IMG/VR virus record: IMGVR_UViG_3300029305_012016 | Reading direction: 5' to 3' (one strand) | DNA: 64,000 nt | Source of the DNA: an uncultured virus (IMG/VR IMGVR_UViG_3300029305_012016) | Lineage: Duplodnaviria > Heunggongvirae > Uroviricota > Caudoviricetes | Shown: positions 53,178-53,467 of the stretch, one piece after another | Layout: each line of letters opens with the position of its first letter | Numbering within the stretch: position 1 is the stretch's first letter | Position numbers and translations under genes: made by a program | Notes under the pieces: generated by a model | What the model saw: only the letters and a program-made list of their open reading frames with translations | Database searches by the model: none | What the model was told of the DNA's origin: nothing

Positions 53178-53432
53178 AGAAAAGCCTCCGGCGAACCGGA
53201 GGCTTTTTTCTGCGCGAATGGAAAGAAGATGGGATGATTGGGATTTGTGATGATTGGGATTAGAAAAAAGAGAATGGATGAAAGAATAATCGTGAAAAAG
53301 GACGGTGTCTTTTTCGCGGCTTGCAGCGCAATATGCGGTTTCTCCATGTAAAAAAATGAGATGCCACTTTGACCGCAACCGGGGATGGGATGCAAGCTGA
53401 TAAGCCTACTGAACCGGGTTGCCTCCGTCCTT
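53178..53432 (-). ncRNA. Candidate ~255-nt sRNA with a structured 5' domain and C/U-rich tail
   Basis: Own SigA promoter; predicted start at stem AAGGACGG/CCGTCCTT; inner stem GCAACC..GG/CCGGTTGC; ends at terminator 53179-53209. Confidence 0.65.
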
Positions 53433-53438
53433 GAATAT

Positions 53439-53467
53439 ATATTACCATAATTCTAACTAATTGTCAA
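53439..53467 (-). promoter_or_regulatory. SigA-type promoter of the candidate sRNA
   Basis: TTGACA-N17-TAATAT with extended TG. Confidence 0.7.

Follow-up and report, generated by a model that had tools for sequence, protein, structure and literature searches.

How might a short non-coding unit, set between two genes of a large mobile element, act on operons scattered along the rest of that element? The question arises at a locus in the 64,000-nucleotide stretch of DNA analysed here (the window), taken from the uncultured virus record IMGVR_UViG_3300029305_012016, where a putative RNA carries two short sequences antisense to a motif in the leaders of the element's own operons.

The window has a GC content of 43.8% and carries nearly all of its genes on the minus strand. 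Pfam and PHROGs searches of 76 ORFs identified sortase, pilin-like, thioester-domain adhesin, SLH, LRR and serpin genes, together with sigma70-region-4, alpha-CTD, ssb, YodL, DUF4314, RNase H, resolvase-like and Lar-like genes, and found no capsid, relaxase or T4SS gene among the 76. Because of this gene content, and of distant hits in Oscillospiraceae records, we regard the window as probably part of a large mobile element of the Clostridia type. Low-complexity repeats surround an ABC-transporter pair (41743–42064, 39089–39245 and 39754–39951).

The candidate sRNA (about 255 nt; 53176–53432, minus strand, both ends inferred) forms a stand-alone unit between the serpin gene and the LRR gene. 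Its SigA-type promoter (53439–53467, minus), recognized by consensus match, comprises TTGACA, 17 nt and TG-n-TAATAT, agrees with the consensus at 10 of 12 positions and tops the 18 SigA hits between 48 and 60 kb, a total that is itself not above chance (22.8 in shuffles). The preliminary description had placed this promoter, which has an extended TG, at the right coordinates, and the start it predicted near 53432 agrees with the fold: the predicted +1 opens an 8-bp stem (53432–53425 with 53305–53298) that closes a 135-nt 5' domain (53298–53432, minus) in both the MFE and the centroid structure. The interior of the domain is weakly determined (z −1.72; equally good folds arise in 14 of 200 shuffles), and the fold score of the whole unit (z −3.6) comes chiefly from the intrinsic terminator (53180–53207, minus; UUCG loop on that strand), which does follow the C/U-rich tail as had been described and is probably bidirectional, given the A/U tracts that flank it on both sides. 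Upstream, a terminator-like hairpin (53567–53583, minus) ends the serpin gene and insulates the sRNA promoter; downstream, a second terminator (53079–53115, minus) lies ahead of the LRR-gene promoter at 53067, whose untagged leader pairs with the sRNA at only −3.4 kcal/mol.

Between the 135-nt domain and the terminator, the U/C-rich tail, predicted to be unpaired, contains the two reported 12-mers, both copies of AUCCCAAUCAUC on the minus strand with a period of 16 nt and unpaired probabilities of about 0.7–1.0. The first seed (53249–53260) has AC after it, which in three of seven leaders pairs with a GU; for the 5' AAAUCCC of the second (53233–53244), some leaders offer a possible partner in their G-rich 5' end. 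Other roles for the unit were considered and rejected: the two minus-strand ORFs that run through it (93 and 72 aa) have no SD by eye and both cross the terminator; coding for Asp-Asp-Trp on the plus strand would place copies 16 nt apart, hence out of frame; in a plus-strand RNA the terminator would precede the repeats with no promoter in between; and a CsrA sponge or other CsrB-like protein sponge would carry the mRNA motif in sense, not in the antisense orientation seen here. A covariance search against Rfam 15 found no family at gathering threshold for the unit, most hits being terminator matches; the sole match above threshold in the scan was a tRNA at 43807.

The leaders addressed by these seeds belong to an element-wide promoter signature, TTCTTATATAAT, present in 14 exact copies and three variants from 35 to 58218, on the minus strand only. 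Six of the 16 complete leaders carry the tag GAUG(A/C/U)UUGG(A/G)G at 20–22 nt past the −10 box (about +15 to +27), with a G-rich element ahead of it where the leader is predicted to begin. The tag is tied to a promoter subclass, since it follows six of the seven complete promoters with a −35 TTTT(A/G)T at 17 nt and none of the nine without it (Fisher p ~9e-4, computed by hand). All on the minus strand, the tagged leaders are those behind promoter 58218 (tag 58175–58185, uORF 58184–58149), which leads to two possibly AbrB-like genes; promoter 52055 (52013–52023), whose tag sits in the loop of a 12-bp hairpin with a second, partial tag copy in its 5' arm, directly above ssb (51479–51964); promoter 50532 (50489–50499), with genes for a RING-finger protein and RNase H among those downstream; promoter 38787 (38744–38754), with YodL downstream; promoter 35182 (35138–35148), where a second site (35066–35083) spans the DUF4314 gene's SD and AUG; and promoter 5984 (5942–5952), with a Holliday-junction resolvase-like gene downstream. 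The count of six with two imperfect copies, as first reported, stands, with four exact tags and one mismatch each at 35148 and 52023. A seventh leader, that of the seventeenth promoter, is cut by the window edge (1–52, minus) after ...AGGA...AUGUGAU, in the same register as the 5984 leader; being visible up to GAU it is probably tagged, in which case the leader at 1–35 would probably run on as GAUGAUUGG.

As far as operon extents can be inferred from promoter positions, the tagged operons contain ssb, YodL, DUF4314, RNase H, the resolvase and the two possibly AbrB-like genes, and the untagged ones the surface proteins, the tRNA region and the alpha-CTD genes. The pair beneath the 58218 leader (56246–58103, minus; 313 and 302 aa) are adjacent ORFan proteins with repeated AbrB/MraZ-like patterns and a C-terminal zinc ribbon. 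An Atlas lead names them AbrB/MazE-like at scores below 0.9, an assignment that was confirmed neither by Pfam nor by an AlphaFold single-sequence model (pLDDT 36).

Several other features of the element's promoters deserve mention in their own right. Its sigma70-region-4 and RNA polymerase alpha-CTD proteins (20757–24303) might read TTCTTATATAAT; for the two large sigma70-region-4 proteins (20757–23571), one fused to an alpha-CTD, a search of 1.84 billion representatives gave no full-length relative beyond the element itself. A different word, ATATACA(G/A), occurs 26–47 bp upstream of five untagged promoters (6784, 17359, 24405, 28103 and 44924, minus) and, inverted, at 53551, some 85 bp upstream of the sRNA promoter, and at 49900 and 19260, possibly marking a second, protein-read regulon. 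The path of a convergent transcript from the element promoter at 28067 (minus) wholly overlaps a plus-strand gene (27648–28007) for a 119-aa protein with a weak HTH_3 hit (E 0.005) and a canonical TTGACA/TATAAT promoter, so that antisense control of an HTH_3-like repressor is possible. Behind promoter 44898 lies a tRNA-like element (44766–44863, minus) with a T-loop, a 3' ACCA end and a non-standard middle, for which ARAGORN and Rfam made no call; between it and tRNA-Lys (43804–43878) sit three 39-nt repeats (44078–44489, spaced by 183–190 nt) with a T-loop-like core, perhaps a degenerate tRNA or structured-RNA array. The leader behind promoter 18962 (18944–18815, minus), ahead of an SLH gene, is predicted to form three hairpins (−38 kcal/mol over 130 nt).

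Exact GATGATTGG occurs six times in the 64 kb: the four copies on the minus strand are each in a leader (5952, 38754, 50499 and 58185), and the two on the plus strand lie in the sRNA tail. Markov expectation is 0.2–0.5 copies per strand (0.3–0.5 on minus), and rough, post hoc estimates give ~3e-7 for two exact antisense copies inside a 259-nt unit and ~1e-9, corrected for all 9-mers, for exact copies in register in four of 17 leaders; the estimate for any close pair on the strand, also post hoc, is ~4e-5. When one mismatch is allowed there is no raw enrichment (22 copies against 19.8 expected; 36 of 100 shuffles reach 22), and the signal of the tag therefore lies in position and exactness. As a pattern in the sequence, the seed and tag feature is real and well beyond chance.

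An IntaRNA-type comparison, suggested in the preliminary description, separates the tagged leaders from the untagged ones. Net pairing energies, calculated for the first 130 nt of 16 leaders with our own approximation of IntaRNA and with opening costs included, are −10.8 to −19.1 kcal/mol for all six tagged leaders and −7.0 or weaker for all ten untagged ones; the strongest predicted target is the leader behind promoter 58218 (−19.1 kcal/mol net), where the duplex begins near the predicted +1. Among 1249 non-overlapping segments of the minus strand the tagged leaders rank 1, 3, 5, 9, 13 and 224, the last being the 35182 leader, whose tag is weak on its own, and the DUF4314 RBS ranks 7. The latter site, at the SD and AUG of its gene, outranks every other start region among the 76 compared (−20.6, with the runner-up at −16.5 and a median of −9.5), which points towards repression, and it is the joint complement of both seeds (GGGAUU, a short gap and (GUG)AUGAUUGG), such that the two seeds together are, by their letters, complementary to a translation-initiation region. 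Rank 2 for tandem-seed pairing belongs to a GU-rich coding stretch (59385–59412, minus; −28.3), probably by chance.

At all seven sites it is the strands complementary to the transcribed ones that give the stronger pairing, by 0.8–5.7 kcal/mol, mainly because in five of six leaders a C of the sRNA faces an A, and G-U asymmetry therefore gives RNA pairing no support. The duplex requires a bulged or mismatched A in five of the six leaders; the SD-like word or a Gly codon may be the reason for keeping this A, an explanation that is ad hoc. Contact with the second seed exceeds 5'-flank shuffles in two leaders of six (5 and 33 of 500; 100–500 in the others). When 6396 windows are compared by raw energy, only the leaders' own complements outdo the tail as a partner for the six leaders, but its lead over the best unrelated windows is narrow (−119.4 vs −118.0). 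The spacing from the G-rich element to the tag is 9–11 nt in the leaders against 7 nt in the sRNA complement, a mismatch that a duplex would tolerate and a DNA operator presumably less well.

The AUG of the tag opens a uORF of 4–11 codons (M-[ILF]-G) in all six leaders, with the variable tag positions falling at position 1 of codon 2 (I/L/F) and at a synonymous Gly position; because this AUG belongs to the tag, the uORF is not independent evidence. An in-frame GUG or AUG stands just ahead of it in four of six leaders. The uORFs have weak SDs (−1.5 to −4.9), and their stops lie 23–93 nt ahead of the next start, which makes direct coupling unlikely. The leader loop contains an SD-like GG(A/G)G, past which mini-ORFs open at canonical starts in three of six leaders (0.37 expected) and at near-cognate starts in all six (2.2 expected), both as post hoc hints. 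Leader hairpins are clear in only two of six (0, 17, 30, 55, 66 and 93 of 300 flank shuffles reach the observed energy), the best being that of the 38787 leader (z −3.26). A conserved leader fold was rejected, as RNAalifold gave no consensus for the tagged leaders, and so was an attenuator terminator formed upon sRNA binding, none of which appeared in constrained folds. The tag sites fall within the first ~27 nt of the mRNA, 40–120 nt upstream of the main start, and in predicted folds a 5'-end block reduces main-RBS accessibility in two of the six leaders (0.78 to 0.39 and 0.67 to 0.47) and hardly alters it in four.

What, then, does the match between tail and leaders mean? A trans-acting RNA on many operons, as first proposed, is the best reading, given the energy gap, the DUF4314 RBS site and the probable seventh leader; the accompanying term "master switch" is too wide, with the tag at six to seven of 17 element promoters and surface-protein operons that lack it. 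Base pairing between sRNA and leaders, of either sign, appears probable to us, and most likely it would shut down the tagged operons after the element has established itself in a new cell. Repression is favoured on two grounds: a true RBS lies under one of the sites, and the tagged genes are similar to genes that are induced transiently after conjugation. It is rather unlikely that the same pairing has the opposite sign, with the sRNA licensing the operons by shielding the 5' end from RNase J1 or by opening a hairpin. Sites at the far 5' end, well upstream of the main start, and a strongest duplex that begins near the predicted +1 would suit such an activator, and C-rich Firmicutes sRNAs activate by this geometry in the RoxS-yflS, FasX-ska and VR-RNA-colA type of case described in PMC5419742, but the extra site lies over SD and AUG of DUF4314, a 5'-end block never materially raises main-RBS accessibility (none of six leaders), and an activator driven by a promoter that looks constitutive would serve poorly as a switch.

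Three further explanations are less likely still. We consider it unlikely that the tag is a double-stranded DNA operator just past the start site to which a repressor encoded by the element binds, much as Reg576 does, for which the AbrB-like pair under the 58218 leader, autoregulated in that case, would be the candidate, and the copies near 53240 a site or decoy. The fixed position of the tag (~+15) fits an operator, as do its tie to the −35 TTTT(A/G)T subclass, the AbrB/MazE-like lead under the top leader and a strand comparison that does not favour RNA, and Reg576 operators, like the tag, also lie just past the start, with the Reg576 gene itself under such a promoter, according to PMC8708921. 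An operator would, however, leave unexplained why tandem copies lie inverted, 16 bp apart and ~180 bp from any promoter, within a separate promoter-terminator unit whose unpaired tail looks made for the purpose; moreover, the leaders have single copies where Reg576 uses dual motifs, the site over SD and AUG and the variable spacing fit RNA better, and neither Pfam nor folding confirmed the AbrB assignment. It is improbable that the 135-nt domain scaffolds an element protein which the tail guides to leader RNA or open DNA. TldR/dCas12f-like systems are a precedent for an RNA-guided repressor or nuclease, the closed 5' domain is without an assigned function, and ~175 kb of the element lie outside the window; yet there is no RNA-guided protein among the 76 scanned ORFs, the sRNA is flanked by serpin and LRR protein genes, and the seeds are doubled and 35 nt from the domain, with mismatches on the scaffold-proximal side. 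Coincidence between a conserved leader motif and a pyrimidine-rich, terminator-proximal tract is very improbable, for although U/C-rich tracts pair with purine-rich leaders anyway and the chance statistics are post hoc, those estimates are low (~3e-7 for the unit, ~4e-5 for any close pair) and the sole two plus-strand copies in 64 kb are those in the sRNA tail.

We therefore return to repression by pairing, and give an even chance to the reading that a trans-acting, C-rich sRNA represses an establishment-type regulon of the element's own operons, as an RNA counterpart of the Reg576 repressor. Under this proposal host SigA would transcribe the sRNA steadily, and a seed would nucleate on the exposed UUGG(A/G)G of a leader and grow to a duplex of 10–13 bp, with the second seed in some leaders also holding the G-rich 5' end. 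The duplex would hide a 5' ribosome-entry cassette made up of the weak SD, the uORF AUG and the SD-like GG(A/G)G; with the 5'-bound ribosome and the hairpin lost, the polycistronic mRNA would be open to decay or polarity, and at DUF4314 the RBS would be blocked directly. A ribosome positioned at an SD is an obstacle to RNase J1 in B. subtilis (PMC5737220), and RyhB represses through a uORF (PMC7534054). If DNA alone enters a new host, the tagged operons would burst until the sRNA accumulates, which would amount to zygotic induction timed by an RNA and assumes that the element is transferred, although the window shows no transfer genes; ssb is described as a zygotically induced gene, with transient induction after conjugation, in PMC12672017. 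More tentatively, and with some doubt, a giant conjugative element may silence establishment operons that share a standard 5' cassette by means of one two-seed sRNA, an RNA-timed zygotic-induction switch.

Among protein-based systems, the Reg576 regulon of p576 (EGeRS2) resembles the arrangement found here in its scattered operons, common upstream cassette and single element-encoded trans factor, and its logic, as here, suits transient expression after transfer, as set out in PMC6294495 and PMC8708921. Reg576 is, however, described there as a ribbon-helix-helix protein on dual DNA heptamers (PMC6294495, PMC8708921), whereas the candidate would be a non-coding RNA antisense to leaders. The dual TTATCCC heptamers of Reg576/EGeRS2 are absent, by eye, from the promoter alignments, where a single, different tag occurs instead. 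EGeRS1 regions differ as well, since they span 400–600 bp without a SigA promoter in the account of PMC8708921 and the element leaders here are short.

With regard to RNA, predictions alone give the candidate the features of the working class of C-rich sRNAs, namely unpaired UCCC seeds in a non-coding unit that runs from promoter to terminator. LhrC and RNAIII are also counted among the C-rich sRNAs of Firmicutes. As described in PMC5419742, RoxS/RsaE, FasX and VR-RNA likewise direct repeated single-stranded UCCC seeds against G-rich 5' regions, and such sRNAs sometimes pair at the extreme 5' end, like the candidate. Their targets are unrelated host mRNAs, whereas the candidate would address a purpose-built cassette, set at one position in leaders of the element itself, and a covariance match to RsaE/RoxS (RF01820) reached 22 bits against a gathering threshold of 79 (E 0.14), so that it is not a member. 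The candidate most probably works like a C-rich Firmicutes sRNA, in the role of Reg576, and would be a member of neither family. In C4 and P4 CI antisense RNAs the seeds lie in the loops of a cloverleaf; the candidate is encoded outside the regulated leaders and has its seeds, identical repeats in contrast to those of C4, in an unstructured, unpaired 3' tail. The C4 RNA of P1/P7, acting on c4-icd-ant, is similar to the candidate in being a mobile-element antisense RNA with two seeds, and it silences downstream genes of a target with a short upstream ORF, as here (PMC8198154), but it is encoded in the one operon that it controls according to the same source, whereas the candidate is free-standing with targets spread over at least 58 kb. 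Repression by uORF blocking, as proposed here, is described for RyhB on uof-fur and GcvB on leader peptides, each with a single chromosomal target, unlike the several operons of the candidate (PMC7534054).

The element itself shares with the Hodor megaplasmids, as characterized in PMC12934698, a large size, ~44% GC, sortase and surface-protein genes and Bacillota-like proteins. Hodor G1/G2 megaplasmids are marked by a wide distribution and by shared core genes (Rep_3, ParAB, a sec/sortase module and giant proteins), a core region that lies outside the window. Hodors have been traced in thousands of samples (PMC12934698), whereas four window proteins that we looked up fall in clusters of one to three sequences on at most nine contigs each, the longest contig having 239,378 bases; the small size of these clusters tells against membership. 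An exhaustive search with one window protein found, above 1e-25, only the protein itself and two proteins of its neighbours' lengths, and from this and the tiny clusters the element appears to be rare. The available text of the Hodor paper mentions no sRNA or promoter (PMC12934698).

Searches for relatives of the sRNA and its leaders agree in returning no homologue of the unit within the collections covered. A viral scan for the tandem motif gave 83 hits; nhmmer showed homology for none of them, and inspection by eye showed mostly repeats that code for Asp/Trp. Viral scans for the leader pattern (six hits) and the promoter pattern (18 hits) gave only matches judged to be chance, and the exact seed junction had no viral hit. 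Viral protein scans yielded nothing, or only SSB homologues at 40–67% identity. In GTDB the pattern had two hits, in unrelated phyla, and in metagenomes at least 118, with no blastn match to the window among the matches listed. Searches of plasmids and phages with the sRNA by blastn gave short chance matches only, and plasmid tblastn gave distant single-gene hits or none; eight plasmid records contained zero to two copies of the element promoter word each. Chromosomal contigs may account for several of the PLSDB records labelled as plasmids of Subdoligranulum, Monoglobus and Agathobacter, one of which has rpsD, rpoA and L17.

Transient expression of establishment genes has been described via ssDNA promoters or a protein repressor, and for EGeRS1, a Bacillus class of establishment regions, the mechanism is stated to be unknown (PMC8708921). 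In the mainly open-access literature searched, we found no description of an sRNA that controls an establishment regulon via a shared leader tag. Should the RNA-timed switch prove true, it would represent a third route to transient establishment expression beside ssDNA promoters and protein repressors, and an AbrB-like regulator pair as its top target would extend the cascade. With a standard leader tag read by an sRNA, the problem of expressing establishment genes transiently would gain a solution that uses RNA alone, and the candidate would provide a natural one-RNA, many-operon switch for Clostridia, in which the tag marks those genes of the element, themselves of unknown function, that probably act early in a new host.
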